Source: a virus. From it: DNA of 28,473 bases. The stretch is from the UHGV virus genome UHGV-0135791; one strand, written 5' to 3'. The position numbers and the translations under genes are program-made. The notes under the pieces are model-generated. The model ran no database searches and was not told where the DNA came from. It was given only the letters and a program-made list of their open reading frames with translations. Below, one piece after another: positions 16,475 through 24,125 of the stretch. Within the stretch, counting starts at the first letter, position 1, and each line of letters opens with the position of its first letter.

Positions 16475-16887
16475 TGGGCTACTTTGAGGACTTAACCAAA
16501 GCGTTCGATGTGCCGCTGGTAGCCTTCGGAACCACCAACGGCATCAAGGTTGCGCTTGAAAATACTGACGCGCCGACGTCAACCGATACACCGTATCTGG
16601 CAAGTTACATGTTGCTTGCGGATACCGAGCAGGCTGACTTATTCTTCACCGAGCAACGCTCTGGTATCTATCAGGTAGACATTAACTACGCATCGGTGAA
16701 AGGTAGCGCACCAATCAATAAAATGGCAGACTTACTTAACACGGCGTTTAAAGCAGGTAAGTCATTTTCACGTAACGACATCTGCGCCGAGGTTCAATCG
16801 GTTAGCCTGGGGCCGCTGATTGTAGAAAACGGATGGGCCAAACGACCATTGTCAATTAACTTTATTGCATTCACCAAGAGGCTGTGA
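16471..16887 (+). CDS. tail terminator/completion protein (putative), 138 aa
   Basis: Position directly before the major tail protein gene; coupled start. Confidence 0.6.
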   Translation: MMGYFEDLTKAFDVPLVAFGTTNGIKVALENTDAPTSTDTPYLASYMLLADTEQADLFFTEQRSGIYQVDINYASVKGSAPINKMADLLNTAFKAGKSFSRNDICAEVQSVSLGPLIVENGWAKRPLSINFIAFTKRL

Positions 16888-18056
16888 ATATGGCTACAAC
16901 TCCTTTTAAGGGCGCGACTACCGCGCAATTCTATGTGGCGGAAACTACCCCCGGCGTAACCCCGGACAACCCGGTCTGGTCGCCGTTGCGCAACACCGGC
17001 GGTGTTCCCGCCATTACTCGCGACACGCTGACCTCCAACGAACTGGACGGCAGCCGTGAAACTACGTCCATCCGCACCGGTAACAAACAGGTTAGCGGTG
17101 AATATGCTATCGAGCTTAGCTCTAAAAGTCAGGATGACTGGCTGGCGGGTGCTTTAGGCTCTACGTGGCAGTCCGGTGCATCGCTGTCCGGGCTGTCGAT
17201 TACCGTCGCACCGGCGGGCAAGACGTTCACCCGCGCCGAAGGTAGCTTTATTTCTGATGGCGTTGAAGTAGGCGACCTGATTGCGTTCACCGACTTAACG
17301 GGCGATAACGCTAAACCGTTTATCGTCACTGCGGTAACGGCTACGGTTGTTACCGGCGCGGGTATCCAACACCCCCTGACCGTCGAGACAAAAACCAGTA
17401 AGGCCAAAACCGGCGACAAACTGGAAACCGGTAGCCAGTGTAAGACGTTCTCTATTCTCACCTGGTACAAAGGCCAGTGCGGCGGGACTGATGCGTACAC
17501 GTTAACCAAAGGCGTGGAAGTTTCTGGTTTTACCGTTGAGCAGGCCGTTAACGCGATGGTAACGGGCAGCTTCCCGTTCATCGGGCGCAGCCAGGAGATT
17601 CTCACCACGGCGCCGTCTGGTTCTGACTTCTCCTCGGTTACGTTTGGTGATGAGCCGTTCTCCTCGGTTGACGTTTCTGTGTTCGACGGCTCTACTCCGT
17701 TGCGTTGCGATAGCCTGACCATCACCAATGATAACAGCGCGTCTGCACAGTTCGAACTTGGTAACACTAACGTAGCATTTGTGGAACGTAGCCGTGCAGC
17801 TAACACCTTCTCCATCTCGGGTAAGCTGTATGACATGGCTATGATTCAGAAGTTTATCAACGAGCAGCAGGTAGAGATTAACTCTATTCTGGCGGGGGTA
17901 AACGGCGCTATGTCTTTCAGTTTGAAACGCGCGGAACTCACGGCGGTTACACCAGAGATTGGCGGACCTGAGTCAATCACTCAGTCCATTGAAGGCCAGG
18001 CTACGGGTAACCAGTACCAGTCGTCTATTGTTATCCAGCGCATCACCTACGCATAA
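16884..18056 (+). CDS. major tail protein (putative), 390 aa
   Basis: Large Thr/Ser/Gly-rich protein after the tail completion genes, followed by a strong terminator. Confidence 0.7.
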   Translation: MNMATTPFKGATTAQFYVAETTPGVTPDNPVWSPLRNTGGVPAITRDTLTSNELDGSRETTSIRTGNKQVSGEYAIELSSKSQDDWLAGALGSTWQSGASLSGLSITVAPAGKTFTRAEGSFISDGVEVGDLIAFTDLTGDNAKPFIVTAVTATVVTGAGIQHPLTVETKTSKAKTGDKLETGSQCKTFSILTWYKGQCGGTDAYTLTKGVEVSGFTVEQAVNAMVTGSFPFIGRSQEILTTAPSGSDFSSVTFGDEPFSSVDVSVFDGSTPLRCDSLTITNDNSASAQFELGNTNVAFVERSRAANTFSISGKLYDMAMIQKFINEQQVEINSILAGVNGAMSFSLKRAELTAVTPEIGGPESITQSIEGQATGNQYQSSIVIQRITYA

Positions 18057-18060
18057 AACT

Positions 18061-18085
18061 AAGGCCCCTTTCGGGGCCTTTTCTT
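18061..18085. terminator. bidirectional rho-independent terminator
   Basis: AAGGCCCC-TTTC-GGGGCCTT hairpin followed by TTCTT; lies between convergent genes. Confidence 0.7.
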
Positions 18086-18314
18086 ACTCATCAATATTAC
18101 TCCTGTACTCCCGTAACTTCTCCAGGCTTTCGATTGCTTCTGCCAAGTCGGTTCCCGTGTCTTTGTGCCCGCGAAGGCCCATACACAATAGCTTCTTCAA
18201 CGCGTGCTGTAGCGCAGGGTCGCGTATATCGAAGGCGCGGAGAACATCGTAAACGTCTACTGTCATAGTGCTGCCGTGAATGTTTGTCATTGTGCGGTTG
18301 TATTTTGAAGTCAT
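18084..18314 (-). CDS. DUF3310-like small phage protein, 76 aa
   Basis: Motif PALQHALKKLLCMGLRGHKD...DLAEAIESLEKL matches the A.KYL.R.G.K...DL.KA..YL pattern recalled for DUF3310. Confidence 0.5.
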   Translation of the reverse strand: MTSKYNRTMTNIHGSTMTVDVYDVLRAFDIRDPALQHALKKLLCMGLRGHKDTGTDLAEAIESLEKLREYRSNIDE

Positions 18315-19441
18315 CCCAGCATCTCCGGTGAAATAGTTAAACGTGCGACCTCGCCGTATTCAGCGCTATAAGTAATTACGTTTGCACTACGGCCTGACAT
18401 CCATCCGCCGCGCGAGGCGTAGGCGTCTTTAGCCGCTAAGGTGCGGTGTTGCTCAACAACCATGTTACGGCTTTCTACAATCTTCTGGTGGTGCAGGTGA
18501 CCCACGTGGGCATAACTGTAGACACTCTCGCCGAACGCTTTACGGAACTTGGCAATCATTACTGGCTCAATAGCGTCGAATCGTGCTTTATGCCCGTGAT
18601 GGAAGAACAGTGTCGTTTTGCCGTGTTGCACCATCTTGTAAACATCCGGTGACGTATCGACAATCACTCGGCTGTCGTTTGAGTATAAAGTCGTGAACAT
18701 TTCCGCCAGCCATACAGACCCTACAGGGTCGTGGTTCCCCTGCACGATAAGCAAGCGAACGGTTTTATGTTTAACCAGCGCCATATCTACAACACGGCGG
18801 ACCATACGAATCATGTAGCGTACAAGTTTCTGATAGCGCGTGTCAGCGTCCAACACATGACGTGACTCAGGTGTAACCGCGTCCAGACTATCGAAGTGTG
18901 CGAAGTCGCCCAGCAGGTTAATAACTCCTGTCCCGGCATCCGGTGCTTTCTGGAATGCCGCATCGAACCAGCGGGAGAACAGGTCTTCCGCAATCTTCAT
19001 GTCCCAGTCGTCGCCGCTCTCGTCGGCCCATGCCAGCATACCGAGATGGAAATCGGATACCGTGTAAAGATTGAGTAGCTTGTCGTCGCGTTTAGCGCGA
19101 ACGGCTTTAACAGGTGCAACGGGTGTAATCTCTGACCTCATGCCTTCGATTACGGCTTTCATCAACTCTATCTGACGTTCGGCGTCAGTATCGGTCTTAA
19201 CCCATTGCAACTTAGTGTTGCCGAACTCGTCCACAAGTGACGACGTGCCTTTAATTTTGTAGCCGTCCGGGACAAGGTGGCTAACGTCGCGCCCGTGGCC
19301 TACGCCTTTCTTAGCCAGCTTCGCTTTACGGATGCGAATAACGCGGTCTGAGATGCCATATTTACGGGCTATATCGATAGTTTTAACTCCGGCGTTCAAT
19401 TCTTCCTGTAACTGTTCGTCGGTTATTTTCTTCCCGGCCAT
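18311..19441 (-). CDS. N-terminal HTH domain fused to a calcineurin/Mre11-like metallophosphoesterase, 376 aa
   Basis: HTH-like LNAGVKTIDIARKYGISDRVIRIRK; phosphoesterase motifs VSDFHLG, LLGDFAHFD, QGNHD, FHHGH and HVGHLHH in canonical order. Confidence 0.75.
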   Translation of the reverse strand: MAGKKITDEQLQEELNAGVKTIDIARKYGISDRVIRIRKAKLAKKGVGHGRDVSHLVPDGYKIKGTSSLVDEFGNTKLQWVKTDTDAERQIELMKAVIEGMRSEITPVAPVKAVRAKRDDKLLNLYTVSDFHLGMLAWADESGDDWDMKIAEDLFSRWFDAAFQKAPDAGTGVINLLGDFAHFDSLDAVTPESRHVLDADTRYQKLVRYMIRMVRRVVDMALVKHKTVRLLIVQGNHDPVGSVWLAEMFTTLYSNDSRVIVDTSPDVYKMVQHGKTTLFFHHGHKARFDAIEPVMIAKFRKAFGESVYSYAHVGHLHHQKIVESRNMVVEQHRTLAAKDAYASRGGWMSGRSANVITYSAEYGEVARLTISPEMLG

Positions 19442-19479
19442 GCTTACCTCCTCGTGTTTAGGATTTGTCCTATACTAGC

Positions 19480-19671
19480 TCACTTCTCTTTGACATTCGA
19501 GTTGCACGCCCAGATTAAGATAAATACCCACGGCAGCAGAATCCAACCAAGAAACAGATTGGCCATGAATATCGCCAGCTTTGCTTTATGGTTGCGGAAA
19601 TAGGCAACTAAAAAAGGCGTAAAGTACGCGAGCAGTGCAAACAGGATTAAGGAAACTGGTAAACTGGACAT
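19480..19671 (-). CDS. superinfection immunity (Imm-like) membrane protein, 63 aa
   Basis: Two TMDs with pattern FLVAYFRNHKAKLAIFMANLFLGWILLPWVFILIWA, resembling the Imm_superinfect family (from memory); first gene after the leftward promoter. Confidence 0.55.
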   Translation of the reverse strand: MSSLPVSLILFALLAYFTPFLVAYFRNHKAKLAIFMANLFLGWILLPWVFILIWACNSNVKEK

Positions 19672-19731: not shown

Positions 19732-19838
19732 GTAATGTGATAGAATAATTTTGCGCCTAGTGTCGCACACGAAAAGCGGGTGGTTCCCGCCTGGCGCAAC
19801 ACCATCAACCAGTAACCTCTTAACCAAAGGATTAAAGA

Positions 19839-20255
19839 ATGAAACTTTCTGATTTTTATTTCGAAGAGAAAGCACTGGTAGGTAAGAAGATGCCGATTCT
19901 CCTGCCGAATGGTGAAGACTCAGGGGAGTGGCTTAACGTTGTAAGCCCTGATGCGGATGCCGCCGTTAAAGCGGGGCGTGCTTTCATTATTGCGTACCGT
20001 CGCGGGTTGGCGCGTTTCGAAGAACTGGAAAAAGCCGCCAAAGAATCCGGCGACTATACTGAATATAACCTGGCTGTTAACGAGCTGGCGGAAGACCTCA
20101 ACCGGCAACTTGCAGCAGAAGTCGTAAACGGCTGGAGCTTTGATGAGCCTTTCTCTAAGGAAGCGTTTAACAAGTTGCTCGACCAGTTCAAGGCATTAGG
20201 CACACAGGTAGCCGCGTTCCATAACGCTGAGCGCAAAGCATTACAGGAAAAGTAG
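19839..20255 (+). CDS. tail assembly chaperone (lambda G-like)
   Basis: 138 aa acidic protein just upstream of the tape measure gene; ends ...CAG GAA AAG TAG with the -1 frame open from 20231. Confidence 0.6.
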   Translation: MKLSDFYFEEKALVGKKMPILLPNGEDSGEWLNVVSPDADAAVKAGRAFIIAYRRGLARFEELEKAAKESGDYTEYNLAVNELAEDLNRQLAAEVVNGWSFDEPFSKEAFNKLLDQFKALGTQVAAFHNAERKALQEK

Positions 20256-20287
20256 ACGCGCTGTACAGGTTCGCCACCTACGAGTTT

Positions 20288-20620
20288 GTGGATAAGCATA
20301 AAATCAGAGAGTTTGATTCTATAGCTGACGGACACGAACAGGCGCTTATCGCAATGGGTGTAATCGATAAGAAAAAACGTGCAGCGCGACGGGGTGGGCC
20401 AGAATGCCCACCCCTTTTTATATCCACCTTTGAGACGTATTGCGACATTAAGTTTACGCGACACGTGCGCGAGGACGCTGTAGTATTGTTTGCAAGAGAA
20501 TCCGTTACGTGGCAAGACCTGAAAGCCTATCTCGATGTTACGCAAAAGCAGCTTAGCCTGTTCGAGATAGACATTATCATGGGCTTAGAAGCAATCTTTG
20601 AAGGTAGAAATCATGGCTGA
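20288..20620 (+). CDS. tail assembly chaperone T-like segment, probably made as a G-T fusion by -1 frameshift
   Basis: Track ORF (GTG start, no clear RBS) lies in the -1 frame relative to the G-like gene and overlaps the TMP start. Confidence 0.4.
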   Translation: MDKHKIREFDSIADGHEQALIAMGVIDKKKRAARRGGPECPPLFISTFETYCDIKFTRHVREDAVVLFARESVTWQDLKAYLDVTQKQLSLFEIDIIMGLEAIFEGRNHG

Positions 20621-22895
20621 TACCGCTAGTTTGATAGTACGAGTATCATCGACCGGCGTCGATAAAACCACATCACAACTGAACGGGCTTACCAAAGCCG
20701 CAGGTGCTGCAGCTGCTGCCGTCGTCAGTCTGGAAACCGCTAAGCAGGTGTTCAGCGCGCTGGTAGACTCCCAGCGCAACTTCGATAAGCTGAACTCCGG
20801 CCTAATCACAATGACCGGGAGTGCTGAGAACGCGGCTAAGGCTTTCAGCGTCCTGCAACAGTTCGCAAAAGAAACCCCGTACGGGCTTAACCAAGCGGTG
20901 GAAGGCTTTACTAAGCTGGTGGCCCTTGGCCTGAACCCAAGCAAAGAGGCGTTAATCTCCTACGGCAACACTGCCGCGGCGATGGGCAAAGACCTTAACC
21001 AGATGATTGAGGCAGTTGCCGACGCCAGTACATTTGAATTTGAGCGACTGAAAGAGTTCGGTATCAAGTCTTCTCAACAGGCGGATACTGTTTCGTTCAC
21101 GTTCCGTGGCGTAACGACCACGGTTAAGAAGAACTCCGAAGAGATTCAGAAATACCTTCTGAACATCGGTAATACCGATTTCGCAGGGGCGATGGAAACG
21201 CGTTCGAAAACCCTTGACGGGCAGTTATCCAGCCTCGCGGACTCCTTCGACGGCCTTGTACTTGCGGTGGCGCAATCAGGTTTCGGTGACGCGGTGGGTG
21301 AACAAGCAGCAACAGCGGAAGACGCTATCACGGCCCTCACCGACGCCATCGCGTCTAATGAGATAGCCGCCACGCTCCAGGATTGGGTGACACTGTTCAA
21401 TGAATCGTTCAAGTTTATTTCTGATGCCTTAAACGACCTGGCATACGATACCGGGGACAAATCCGCAGATATGTCAGACTCGCTGGGGACTATCCCGGAC
21501 GCTATCCGTGAGTGGTTGCCTGATATACAGCAGACATTCCACGAGGTTATTGCGTGGTTCCAGCGCATTGACGATTACGCCGTAGCGCTTGGCCAGACCC
21601 TCGCCGACGTGTTTGACCCGAGCAAAACGGCAGCGCTAACATTTAAAAAACTGACCGCAGAAGCCGACGCCGCATACGACGCCAGCATAAAACGCGCAGA
21701 GGCCGAATCACAGGCCATTACCAACAGGTCTAAGCAGCGTAAGAAAGAAATTGAGGAACAGCGCAAGCAGTATGACGAGCGCAAGAAGCAAGAAATCGAC
21801 CTAGCCAGCCTTGTTAATGGGAAGGGCGGAAAGGGTGGAACTGGCGGAGCCGGAAATACTAACGACAAAGACGCGAAAGCCGCCGCTAAGAAGGCGGAGC
21901 AATTGCGCAAACAGGCCCAGGATTACCTCGACACTTTGGCCCGTCAGAACAACGACGAGTTAAAGGCTATCGACGCGCAGGAACAGCAGAAACTGGCTAA
22001 AGCAAAAGAGTTTTACAGTCAGGGCGCGTTGTCTCTGAAAGAGTACGAGCAAGCAAAAACGGCTATCGTCCTTGAAGCAGGGCAAAAACGGCAAGATGAA
22101 CTGGATAAACGCCAGAAAGAAGCCCAGGAAAAGCAGCAGAAAGGCGATGACTTCATGGCCCAGATTATGGGTCAGAACGCCACTGAGCTTGAGCTTCTCG
22201 ATATCCAGGAACAGCAGAAACTGGCTGTCGCCGATAAATACCGCGAACAGGGTCTGATTAGTGAGAAGCAGTATCAGGCTGCGCTTAACGCCATCAACGA
22301 GCAGTACGCCACGAAGCGCGCCGACGCAACGGCAACCGCCTTTGGTAACATGGCTTCAAACATCGGGTCTGCGTTGGGTGAGGCTTCTGGCGCATACAAG
22401 GCATTCGCTATCGTACAGGCCACTATCGCCACGTACACCGCGGCTATTGAGGCGTACAAGTCCACGGCGGCTATCCCTGTAGTTGGCCCGTTCCTGGCTC
22501 CCGTAGCCGCTGCTGCTGCCGTTGGGGCGGGTATGGCGCAGATTTCCGCTATCAGGTCTGCGCGTGAACAGGGTGGGCAGTTATCCGCCGGGCAGGCTTC
22601 TACTATCGCCGAACGCGGTAAACCAGAAGTTATCATGCCCGCTGGTGCGTCACGTGTACGCACTGCGCAGCAGATGAAAGAAATTATGGGGCAAAACGGC
22701 GGCAGTACCGGGTCAGCCAATATCAGCATTATAAATAACACCAGCGCACAAATTGGTAATACCAGTGTTGAACAGGACGAAGAAGGCCGCTTGCGTATCA
22801 TTATAGAGGAGCAAGTTGCTGCTTCGCTGCAGAATAGTAACAGCAAAATATCGAAAGCTAGGAAGGCTACAAGAAACGCACCCGGCTTTAAGTAA
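20613..22895 (+). CDS. tail tape measure protein
   Basis: About 760 aa, Ala/Gln/Lys-rich with internal repeats (QEQQKLAKAKEFYSQG / QEQQKLAVADKYREQG) and a Gly-rich stretch. Confidence 0.85.
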   Translation: MADTASLIVRVSSTGVDKTTSQLNGLTKAAGAAAAAVVSLETAKQVFSALVDSQRNFDKLNSGLITMTGSAENAAKAFSVLQQFAKETPYGLNQAVEGFTKLVALGLNPSKEALISYGNTAAAMGKDLNQMIEAVADASTFEFERLKEFGIKSSQQADTVSFTFRGVTTTVKKNSEEIQKYLLNIGNTDFAGAMETRSKTLDGQLSSLADSFDGLVLAVAQSGFGDAVGEQAATAEDAITALTDAIASNEIAATLQDWVTLFNESFKFISDALNDLAYDTGDKSADMSDSLGTIPDAIREWLPDIQQTFHEVIAWFQRIDDYAVALGQTLADVFDPSKTAALTFKKLTAEADAAYDASIKRAEAESQAITNRSKQRKKEIEEQRKQYDERKKQEIDLASLVNGKGGKGGTGGAGNTNDKDAKAAAKKAEQLRKQAQDYLDTLARQNNDELKAIDAQEQQKLAKAKEFYSQGALSLKEYEQAKTAIVLEAGQKRQDELDKRQKEAQEKQQKGDDFMAQIMGQNATELELLDIQEQQKLAVADKYREQGLISEKQYQAALNAINEQYATKRADATATAFGNMASNIGSALGEASGAYKAFAIVQATIATYTAAIEAYKSTAAIPVVGPFLAPVAAAAAVGAGMAQISAIRSAREQGGQLSAGQASTIAERGKPEVIMPAGASRVRTAQQMKEIMGQNGGSTGSANISIINNTSAQIGNTSVEQDEEGRLRIIIEEQVAASLQNSNSKISKARKATRNAPGFK

Positions 22896-22902
22896 TAACA
22901 GA

Positions 22903-22926
22903 AAGGCCCGAAAGGGCCTTATTTCT
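22903..22926. terminator. bidirectional rho-independent terminator
   Basis: AAGGCCC-GAAA-GGGCCTT hairpin followed by ATTTCT; lies between convergent genes. Confidence 0.65.
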
Positions 22927-22938
22927 CCCGCCTCTGGG

Positions 22939-23589
22939 CTAACGACCCTCTTTTATCAAGGCGATAACGCGGTCGAACATACCTTCCCTTATCGCCTCTA
23001 TCTCACATCTTCTTGATTCCGCCGCCCTTATCTTTTCAGCAATGTAAGCATCTAGCGCTTCTTCCTGAGTTTCAAAACGTCCTAGATTAATAGTTTTTTT
23101 ATCACAGCTCACTGAGGCTTTAAATTTACCTCTAGATTCTTCATAAAAAACACCTGTAGGTGTTCCACTATTTTTCTTCTCCTTTAGGAAAACATTCAAC
23201 CATTTCGGGATGAAAATGCAAGTGGTAGGGCTGTATACCTTATTAATACCAGAGAATATGTCCTTATCTAGCTCCCATCCCTCCACATAATTACAAAGCC
23301 ACCATCTACGGAAGGACATAAACCTTTGCCACCCTGGCCACACAGTTACATCCCGGTACGCAGGCCTTTTGTTTTTATACTCGGTGTCCACGCAACGTTG
23401 GATCATCCCTCGCCATGTAGCGTACGCCAGACACGTCTCACGGCTGCCGTTTATCTTGGGGCTAACCACATAATCGGCGTCATTTATGCCAAAACCACAT
23501 ATAGTTGCACGCTTAGTTTTGCTGCTTTTGTTCGCAGGATAATTCGCACGCAGCCACATGCTCTTGGCTACTTTTTCGGTTGGCATCAT
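22939..23589 (-). CDS. HNH homing endonuclease with C-terminal AP2-like DNA-binding domain
   Basis: N-terminal pattern ATWRGMIQRC...AYRDVTVWPGWQRFMSFRRWW...ELDKDI; C-terminal GVFYEESRGKFKASVSCDKKTINLGRFETQEEALDAYIAEKIR is AP2-like. RBS AGGAGA before the ATGATG start; AT-rich. Confidence 0.65.
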   Translation of the reverse strand: MMPTEKVAKSMWLRANYPANKSSKTKRATICGFGINDADYVVSPKINGSRETCLAYATWRGMIQRCVDTEYKNKRPAYRDVTVWPGWQRFMSFRRWWLCNYVEGWELDKDIFSGINKVYSPTTCIFIPKWLNVFLKEKKNSGTPTGVFYEESRGKFKASVSCDKKTINLGRFETQEEALDAYIAEKIRAAESRRCEIEAIREGMFDRVIALIKEGR

Positions 23590-23624
23590 GTTAGTATCTC
23601 CTAAACTAATAGGAGTATCTTGCC

Positions 23625-24125
23625 ATGTCTTCTTTGAAATTTCCAGCAAGTTTAAAGCCAGTGGTGTCAAAAGGCTACTCGATGACCAGACGCAACAACG
23701 TCTGGAGTGTAGATTTAGCTGGCGGCGGTGTACGTCAGGGGCGCGACACGTATTACGACGTGTTCCCGATAAGCGTAACCCTGATTACCTCAGCGCTAGG
23801 GCGTCAGGCGTTTCTGTCGTTCCTCGAAAAAGTCGATGGCGGTGCGTCAAGTTTCTGGATGGCGCACGACTTCGGCATGGGTATCGAGGATTATCAGGTA
23901 ACGATCACGTCCACCATCGCGGAGTCTACCGAAGATGGAATTAACTGGACGATTACTTTCACGGCAACCGCTGAGAAATCGCCGTTCCAGAACCTTGAGA
24001 ACCAGTGCCTGATTAACAATCTGCCGGATTTGTATGGTTGCTATGGCGACGGGCTGGGATGTTTCCTTAAAGCCTACGGAACCGCACAATCAACGTTTCC
24101 ACGAATTTGGGACCCGATGCAATGA
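23625..24125 (+). CDS. minor/distal tail protein (putative), 166 aa
   Basis: First gene after the TMP/HNH region; AGGAG 9 nt upstream. Confidence 0.6.
   Translation: MSSLKFPASLKPVVSKGYSMTRRNNVWSVDLAGGGVRQGRDTYYDVFPISVTLITSALGRQAFLSFLEKVDGGASSFWMAHDFGMGIEDYQVTITSTIAESTEDGINWTITFTATAEKSPFQNLENQCLINNLPDLYGCYGDGLGCFLKAYGTAQSTFPRIWDPMQ

Follow-up and report, generated by a model that had tools for sequence, protein, structure and literature searches.

The locus examined here lies on the plus strand of the window, by which we mean the whole stretch of viral DNA analysed (28,473 nucleotides, UHGV-0135791). In the list of open reading frames (ORFs) the tail assembly chaperone gene, G, spans positions 19839–20255 (+) and specifies a 0-frame product of 138 amino acids (15.5 kDa); a Shine-Dalgarno (SD) sequence AAGGA precedes it at 19827–19831 (+). 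The original prediction had G ending in CAG GAA AAG TAG, with the stop at 20253–20255 (+), and reading of the sequence found every one of these coordinates to be correct. The −1 frame, likewise claimed to be open from 20231 to 20620 and to overlap the start of the tape measure protein (TMP) gene, does run uninterrupted from 20231, directly after a TGA at 20228–20230, to a TGA at 20618–20620 (129 codons). A shift from one frame to the other has to take place between the −1-frame stop and the 0-frame stop, and this obligatory overlap (20231–20255, +) measures only 25 nt, which corrects the earlier description. The extension, T, is read in the −1 frame from GTA at 20252 to the TGA at 20618–20620 (20252–20620, +; 122 amino acids); the 0-frame TAG stands directly 3′ of the shift codon and contributes its TA as bases 2 and 3 of the T codon GTA. 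Computed with the junction placed between AAG (Lys138) and GTA (Val), the GT fusion has 260 amino acids and a mass of 29.5 kDa, as opposed to the approximately 25 kDa anticipated at first.

The TMP gene follows at 20613–22895 (+), identified by PHROG 1538 (E = 9e-193) and by the annotation of phage K1G. Its ATG at 20613 overlaps the T stop by 8 nt, ATGGCTGA, and is preceded by an SD sequence AAGG. The octamer ATGGCTGA at the T stop and TMP start (20613–20620) is identical to that at the T/H boundary of lambda (943–950), while the proteins are without detectable similarity.

Upstream of G lies the tube protein gene (16884–18056; Pfam Phage_tube_2), and three minus-strand genes (18084–19671, −) stand between the two and split the tail module, as in K1G. 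One encodes a metallophosphoesterase-type DNA repair exonuclease (18311–19441, −), another a superinfection immunity protein of 63 amino acids (19480–19671, −; Pfam Imm_superinfect, E = 2e-12), and the third is a 76-aa ORF. This minus-strand arrangement between tube gene and G is common to K1G and Jerseyvirus, with K1G having two additional genes, for an ATP-binding protein and a polynucleotide kinase, where the window has the 76-aa ORF alone. On the far side of the TMP gene, a minus-strand ORF of 243 amino acids (22939–23670, −) is found between it and the next tail gene, within an insert at 22896–23624; K1G has no gap at that place. The 5′ end of this ORF overlaps the start of the downstream plus-strand gene (23625) by 46 nt. 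It gives a weak match to an AP2 domain (E = 2e-4, below the Pfam cut-off) and is annotated as an HNH endonuclease in two related records. The insert is present, whole or in part, in seven of the ten phage records that its search matched, the other three matching the flanks only; the neighbouring G/T region matched more than 200 records. This insert looks like a sporadic insertion of the homing-endonuclease type.

Both reading frames of the chaperone locus belong to known protein families. G scores 27 bits with Pfam Phage_TAC_4 (cut-off 21.1); the −1 ORF reaches 67.5 bits with Pfam Phage_TAC_18 (E = 1.1e-18, cut-off 27). In PHROG 15027, which has 259 positions, G aligns to positions 1–138 (E = 3e-71) and the −1 ORF to positions 135–259 (E = 8e-71), indicating that this family was built from fused proteins. 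Judged by the Pfam and PHROG matches, the −1 ORF is a genuine coding sequence and not a chance ORF. A sequence search of the PDB with the fusion protein returned nothing credible.

The window represents a Kagunavirus (subfamily Guernseyvirinae), with 95–97% DNA identity to many Escherichia coli Kagunavirus phages in this region and about 96% to K1G. The K1G entries (GenBank GU196277, from 2010, and RefSeq NC_027993) hold at this place a two-piece joined coding sequence (CDS), ORF22B, beside the short ORF22A (proteins ADA82266/ADA82267 and YP_009168805/YP_009168804). The K1G fusion has the junction ...ALQEK|VDALY..., is 260 amino acids long and differs from that of the window in two residues; by exact-sequence look-up it is found in NCBI as ADA82267.1, YP_009168804.1 and QNO11738.1, and in phage fKuEco01 as well. 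Since a K1G-type fusion with the same junction sits in NCBI, a frameshift has been predicted at this very site before, and as a prediction it has been in GenBank since 2010. Most other GenBank records give T as a separate gene, with a start that differs from record to record, and the genome announcement of the related phage Shashou speaks of 'no canonical slippery sequence' (PMC6776780). Our literature search (Kagunavirus, Jerseyvirus, K1G) found no protein, ribosome-profiling or reporter data for the phage or its subfamily.

The locus was compared across a set of 63 IMG/VR loci whose T domains are 100% to 35% identical to that of the window, and codon variation was followed in 17 lineages grouped at ≤90% amino acid identity (median pairwise identity 51%). 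In each of the 63 loci T is read at −1 relative to G, and amino acid conservation in the T frame sets in only with the first codon past AAG (V.AL..FA.W.F...). A frameshift would be unneeded if T were an independent gene with a start of its own, be it GTG 20288, CTG 20261 or ATG 20354, and many records do list a free-standing second 'tail assembly chaperone' of 88–119 amino acids. Also in favour of such a start, T codon 4 is TTG in 18/63 loci with AGGA 12 nt upstream, but the same codon is CTG in the 45/63 loci that include the window. T codon 13, GTG at 20288 in the window, is GTG in only 13/63 loci; upstream of it there is no SD match (best 'GAG'), unlike G and TMP, which bears out the earlier remark that the downstream ORF lacks a convincing ribosome binding site. 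Before T codon 35 no start codon is conserved in the 63 loci. This codon is the first widely conserved ATG, it too is without an SD sequence, and starting there would lose 34 residues, the invariant F21, D22, I24, G27 and H28 among them. Furthermore, the annotated T starts vary among records, and independent initiation leaves unexplained why A_AAR plus stop is invariant and why the −1 phase is fixed in 63/63 loci. We consider it quite unlikely that T is translated in this way.

The shift site of the window, G_GAA_AAG (20246–20252, +), contains the core tetramer A_AAG (20249–20252). Re-pairing in the P site from GAA to GGA is imperfect, requiring a G-U pair at the middle position, and the overlap in the window contains no canonical X_XXY_YYZ heptamer, so that the tetramer A_AAG alone is canonical. 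Among the 63 loci, A_AAG or A_AAA is present at the slip position in every case: G terminates with A_AAG and an adjacent TAG or TAA in 57, and with A_AAA and an adjacent stop in five. The stop adjoins the shift codon in 62/63 loci, the lone exception (L027) reading GCA AAG TTA TAG. The first T codon is GTA (Val) in 58 loci, ATA in four and GTT in one. In some relatives the overlap shrinks to 16–19 nt, and T-frame stops come as near as 4–5 codons upstream of the junction; because the permitted windows are this short and the T-frame stops this close, A_AAR is the sole element common to all of them. The codon preceding AAG varies among loci. G_GAA_AAG is the commonest form; Raoultella phage RP180, of the same genus as the window, has G_GGA_AAG, the heptamer of lambda; two loci have A_AAA_AAG, the dnaX heptamer; the most distant clade has A_AAA_AAA; and other loci have G_GCA_AAG or G_GTA_AAG, in which the tetramer alone can re-pair. 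The original prediction was thus right to call the heptamer of the window non-canonical, and overlooked both the canonical heptamers of relatives and the covarying helix that lies downstream.

Runs of A residues might also allow RNA polymerase, in place of the ribosome, to change the frame by slippage during transcription. The most distant relatives do carry A7 runs (GCAAAAAAATAG), but in the window and in most lineages the run is no longer than A4 (GGAAAAG) or A3 (GCAAAG, GTAAAG), lengths that do not suffice for productive slippage during transcription. The final G of AAG, conserved in 16/17 lineages, fits re-pairing of tRNA-Lys and not homopolymer slippage. Taken together, these observations make a polymerase-based change of frame highly improbable.

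Synonymous variation is suppressed at the junction. Over 124 conserved columns in the 17 lineages, synonymous sites elsewhere are saturated (mean major-codon fraction 0.61), against which the junction codons stand out: Lys 0 is AAG in 16/17 lineages, Val +1 is GTA in 15/16, Ala +3 is GCG in 16/17 and Leu +4 is CTG in 15/17. Two side observations from this alignment concern other positions. Synonymous variation is also suppressed in the last two codons of T, and one Asn column in G (alignment column −69 relative to Lys138) uses a single codon in 100% of the 17 lineages, the only such fully fixed codon in G outside the junction. Upstream of the slip site, the sequence GAGCGCAAAGCAUUAC contains no match to an SD-like element at a distance of 10–14 nt. 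An AGGA (20245–20248) does abut the tetramer, and it is missing from the GCAAAG and GUAAAG lineages. An upstream SD stimulator was rejected on these two grounds.

What led us to search for long-range pairing was the near-absence of synonymous change at codons +3 and +4. In every lineage (17/17), the 14 nt after the stop have a downstream complement of 10–13 bp (−16 to −22 kcal/mol). In the window this helix, H1, pairs a 5′ arm CGCGCUGUAC (20257–20266, +), which starts 4 nt after A_AAG, with a 3′ arm GUGCAGCGCG (20379–20388, +). By RNAduplex it has 10 bp and an energy of −20 kcal/mol, its arms are separated by a loop of 112 nt, and its pair probabilities in the window are 0.95–1.0; pair probabilities and covariation support both arms. 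Short-range searches came up empty, with 0 pairs from RNAalifold over 102 nt in 20 lineages and z = −0.49 from local folding of 20253–20340, because the 3′ arm of H1 lies beyond their range. The first pair of H1 forms 4–6 nt after A_AAG in all lineages (4 nt in the K1G-like ones, 5–6 nt in the others), and in the exceptional locus L027, where the stop comes one codon later, the spacing is kept relative to A_AAG and not to the stop. The 3′ arm occupies one of three places, at ~+125 nt from the stop in the K1G-like lineages including the window, in Jerseyvirus and in three other lineages, at ~+197–203 nt in eleven lineages, and at ~+68 nt in the A_AAA_AAA clade. Arms specific to single clades are still complementary (CUGUAC/GUGCAG, UUGUUUC/GAAACAA and UUGCUCC/GGAAGCAA).

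Covariation in H1 was counted on ungapped alignments of two classes, class A with 35 sequences and class B with 23. In class A, 88% of cells are paired versus 19–53% when the partner is slid, and four pairs have changed on both sides; in class B the corresponding values are 86% versus 19–46%, with five pairs changed on both sides, these counts not being independent events since related sequences are included. None of 500 shuffles reached the observed covariation score in either class (0/500 each), and RNAalifold recovers H1 unprompted in classes A and B. In single lineages the energy of H1 falls only within the top 0–13% of control windows. The two classes accommodate the helix differently in the protein. 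The 3′ arm of class A falls within a variable linker of T (KKKRAARRGG in the window, EDAEETTQDAG in Jerseyvirus), and complementarity is kept; that of class B encodes F-x-Q-R, where x covaries with residue 5 of T and CAG is the only Gln codon used. Rfam has no family match for the region (best E = 0.98, on the wrong strand). A covarying long-range helix beside the slip site is absent from the sources searched and appears to be new.

H1 is probably a stimulator of frameshifting, as judged from its position and conservation. Both its place and its covariation correspond to the downstream structure of a stimulated −1 signal of the dnaX/IS3 type (5–9 nt), the 4-nt spacer of the window being at the short end of known spacers. 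Alternatively, the frameshift could be real and H1 have some other role in the sparsely translated stretch that separates the stop of G from the start of TMP: it might stabilise the mRNA, shield it from Rho or RNases, hide spurious internal starts, or position the adjoining hairpin H2. Such a role would suit the ~357 nt (20256–20612) that should be free of most ribosomes, the resemblance of H2 to an intrinsic terminator, and the fact that the 5′ arm covers T codon 4 (TTG/CTG); in addition, the G/T region of lambda contains no comparable downstream helix by the same measure. Against such roles stand a 5′ arm fixed 4–6 nt from A_AAG in 17/17 lineages while the 3′ arm is found at three places, and a spacing that in L027 follows A_AAG and not the stop; the geometry is that of known −1 stimulators. 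A purely non-stimulatory role for H1 therefore seems to us rather unlikely, and carries more weight than either independent initiation of T or polymerase slippage.

H2 abuts the 3′ arm of H1 and lies inside the T ORF, upstream of the TMP gene. Together with its U-tract it spans 20391–20424 (+): a GC-rich stem of 9 bp, GGGGUGGGC/GCCCACCCC (20391–20399 with 20406–20414), is followed by UUUUUAUAU, and the whole scores as an intrinsic terminator. The same nucleotides encode a conserved GPECPPLFI motif, in which synonymous variation is suppressed at the T-frame codons Gly +49 and Cys +52. Covariation between Kagunavirus and Jerseyvirus is seen in the lower part of the stem, and the hairpin with its U-rich tail is kept in many lineages, Jerseyvirus being without the U-run. 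H2 may serve to attenuate transcription of the tail genes, or it may simply be a side effect of the coding sequence.

The geometry of the ORFs, the homology, the conservation and the covariation of the RNA are observed, and from them we infer the occurrence and the frequency of a shift as well as its stimulation by H1 and the stop. We propose that a programmed −1 ribosomal frameshift at A_AAG makes GT beside G, with H1 and the stop as probable helpers, and put the probability of this reading at about 0.82. The G-to-GT shift claimed at the outset is thus supported, at the level of comparative genomics, by the joined CDS of K1G, by the phase common to 63/63 loci and by the conservation of the site. 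A small fraction of ribosomes would slip back by one base at A_AAG (20249–20252), the last sense codon of G; tRNA-Lys would re-pair from AAG to AAA, and the next codon to be read would be GTA (Val) in place of the TAG stop. Translation would continue in the −1 frame to 20620 and yield the 260-aa GT beside an abundant 138-aa G. By analogy with gpG and gpGT of lambda, the G part would bind the tape measure protein and the T part would recruit the tail tube protein, with neither protein present in the virion.

The frequency of slippage would probably be set by three elements, namely the A_AAG tetramer, H1 and the adjacent stop. With the P site occupied by GAA and the A site by AAG, H1 would start at about +11 from the first P-site base, at the mRNA entrance of the ribosome. 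The adjacent stop would act if the slip comes after translocation, when the A site is slow to fill. Protein sequencing alone cannot separate these routes because all of them yield ...QEK-VDAL.... The minimal −1 site is a Z_ZZN tetramer, natural cases of A_AAG being known from IS1222 and Bacillus subtilis cdd, and E. coli has a single tRNA-Lys (PMC5009743). In E. coli A_AAG is the most shift-prone tetramer, is near background when alone and reaches up to 5.6% with a pseudoknot (PMC4066793). Since A_AAG without a stimulator is barely above background, our explanation depends on H1, the stop or both.

A broader reading, to which we give an even chance, is that the Guernseyvirinae-type signal may be a three-part module consisting of a bare A_AAG, an adjacent 0-frame stop and a long-range helix whose 3′ arm has changed its place at least twice in evolution. 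In such a module the moves of the 3′ arm (~+68, +125 and +200 nt) may have dragged amino acid changes in T along. If H1 and the stop indeed set the G:GT ratio, the module would explain why annotators in this subfamily found 'no canonical slippery sequence'.

For a siphophage, a frameshift of this kind is to be expected and comes as no surprise. The comparative evidence favours recording G and GT as a joined CDS with its junction at A_AAG in the whole subfamily, which is large, has among its members many candidates for therapy against E. coli K1 and Salmonella, and in most of its records has T listed as a separate small gene with arbitrary starts. H1, the minimal tetramer and the stop make up a compact system, open to testing by mutation, in which to study the boosting of weak slip sites and the constraints that an RNA structure places on its encoded protein. 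If H1 and the stop do set the G:GT ratio, they would represent a natural, phylogenetically replicated long-range stimulator of bacterial −1 frameshifting.

The closest known arrangement is that of K1G, whose ORF22A/ORF22B occupy the same locus with a coding arrangement essentially identical to that of the window. The K1G annotation is a prediction that makes no mention of an RNA element, to which the present analysis adds H1. The next comparison is with gpG and gpGT of lambda, where the −1 frameshift was described by Levin, Hendrix and Casjens (1993) and by Xu, Hendrix and Duda (2004, 2013, 2014), G and GT are made at a ratio of ~30:1, G binds the tape measure protein and T binds the tail tube protein (reviewed in PMC5009743). 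As in lambda, the tape measure gene is preceded by two ORFs, of which the second occupies the −1 frame and has no start of its own, the shift is placed on an ...A_AAG lysine codon near the end of G, and T and TMP overlap by the same 8 nt. Unlike lambda, in which a canonical heptamer is followed by five more sense codons, the window has imperfect P-site re-pairing, an adjacent stop, and three minus-strand genes between its tube gene and G. Sequence homology to lambda G was considered and rejected, there being no detectable similarity; the relation is one of architecture.

With dnaX and the IS3 family the locus shares an A_AAG lysine codon, a single tRNA-Lys(UUU) and an RNA structure downstream after a short spacer. 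It differs in that the structure forms at long range, around 112 nt (~185 nt in class B), and is not a local hairpin or pseudoknot, and in that AGGA abuts the site instead of an SD-like element standing at 10–14 nt; the frequency, too, would be expected to be low and not ~50%. The resemblance to G_CGA_AAG of IS1222 and A_CGA_AAG of B. subtilis cdd lies in the Z_ZZN tetramer, here the only strictly conserved slip element, and lineages with GCA_AAG or GUA_AAG lack P-site re-pairing, as in tetramer-type frameshifting. The stop immediately 3′ of the slip site recalls the 'shifty stops' of Weiss et al. 1987 (cited in PMC5009743), encountered here in a phage tail chaperone. Among the sequence features of the lambda-type class, the window lacks only the canonical heptamer, which both close and distant relatives possess. 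On its architecture, its protein families and the conservation of its −1 phase, the locus is a member of the G/GT class of tail-chaperone frameshifts.
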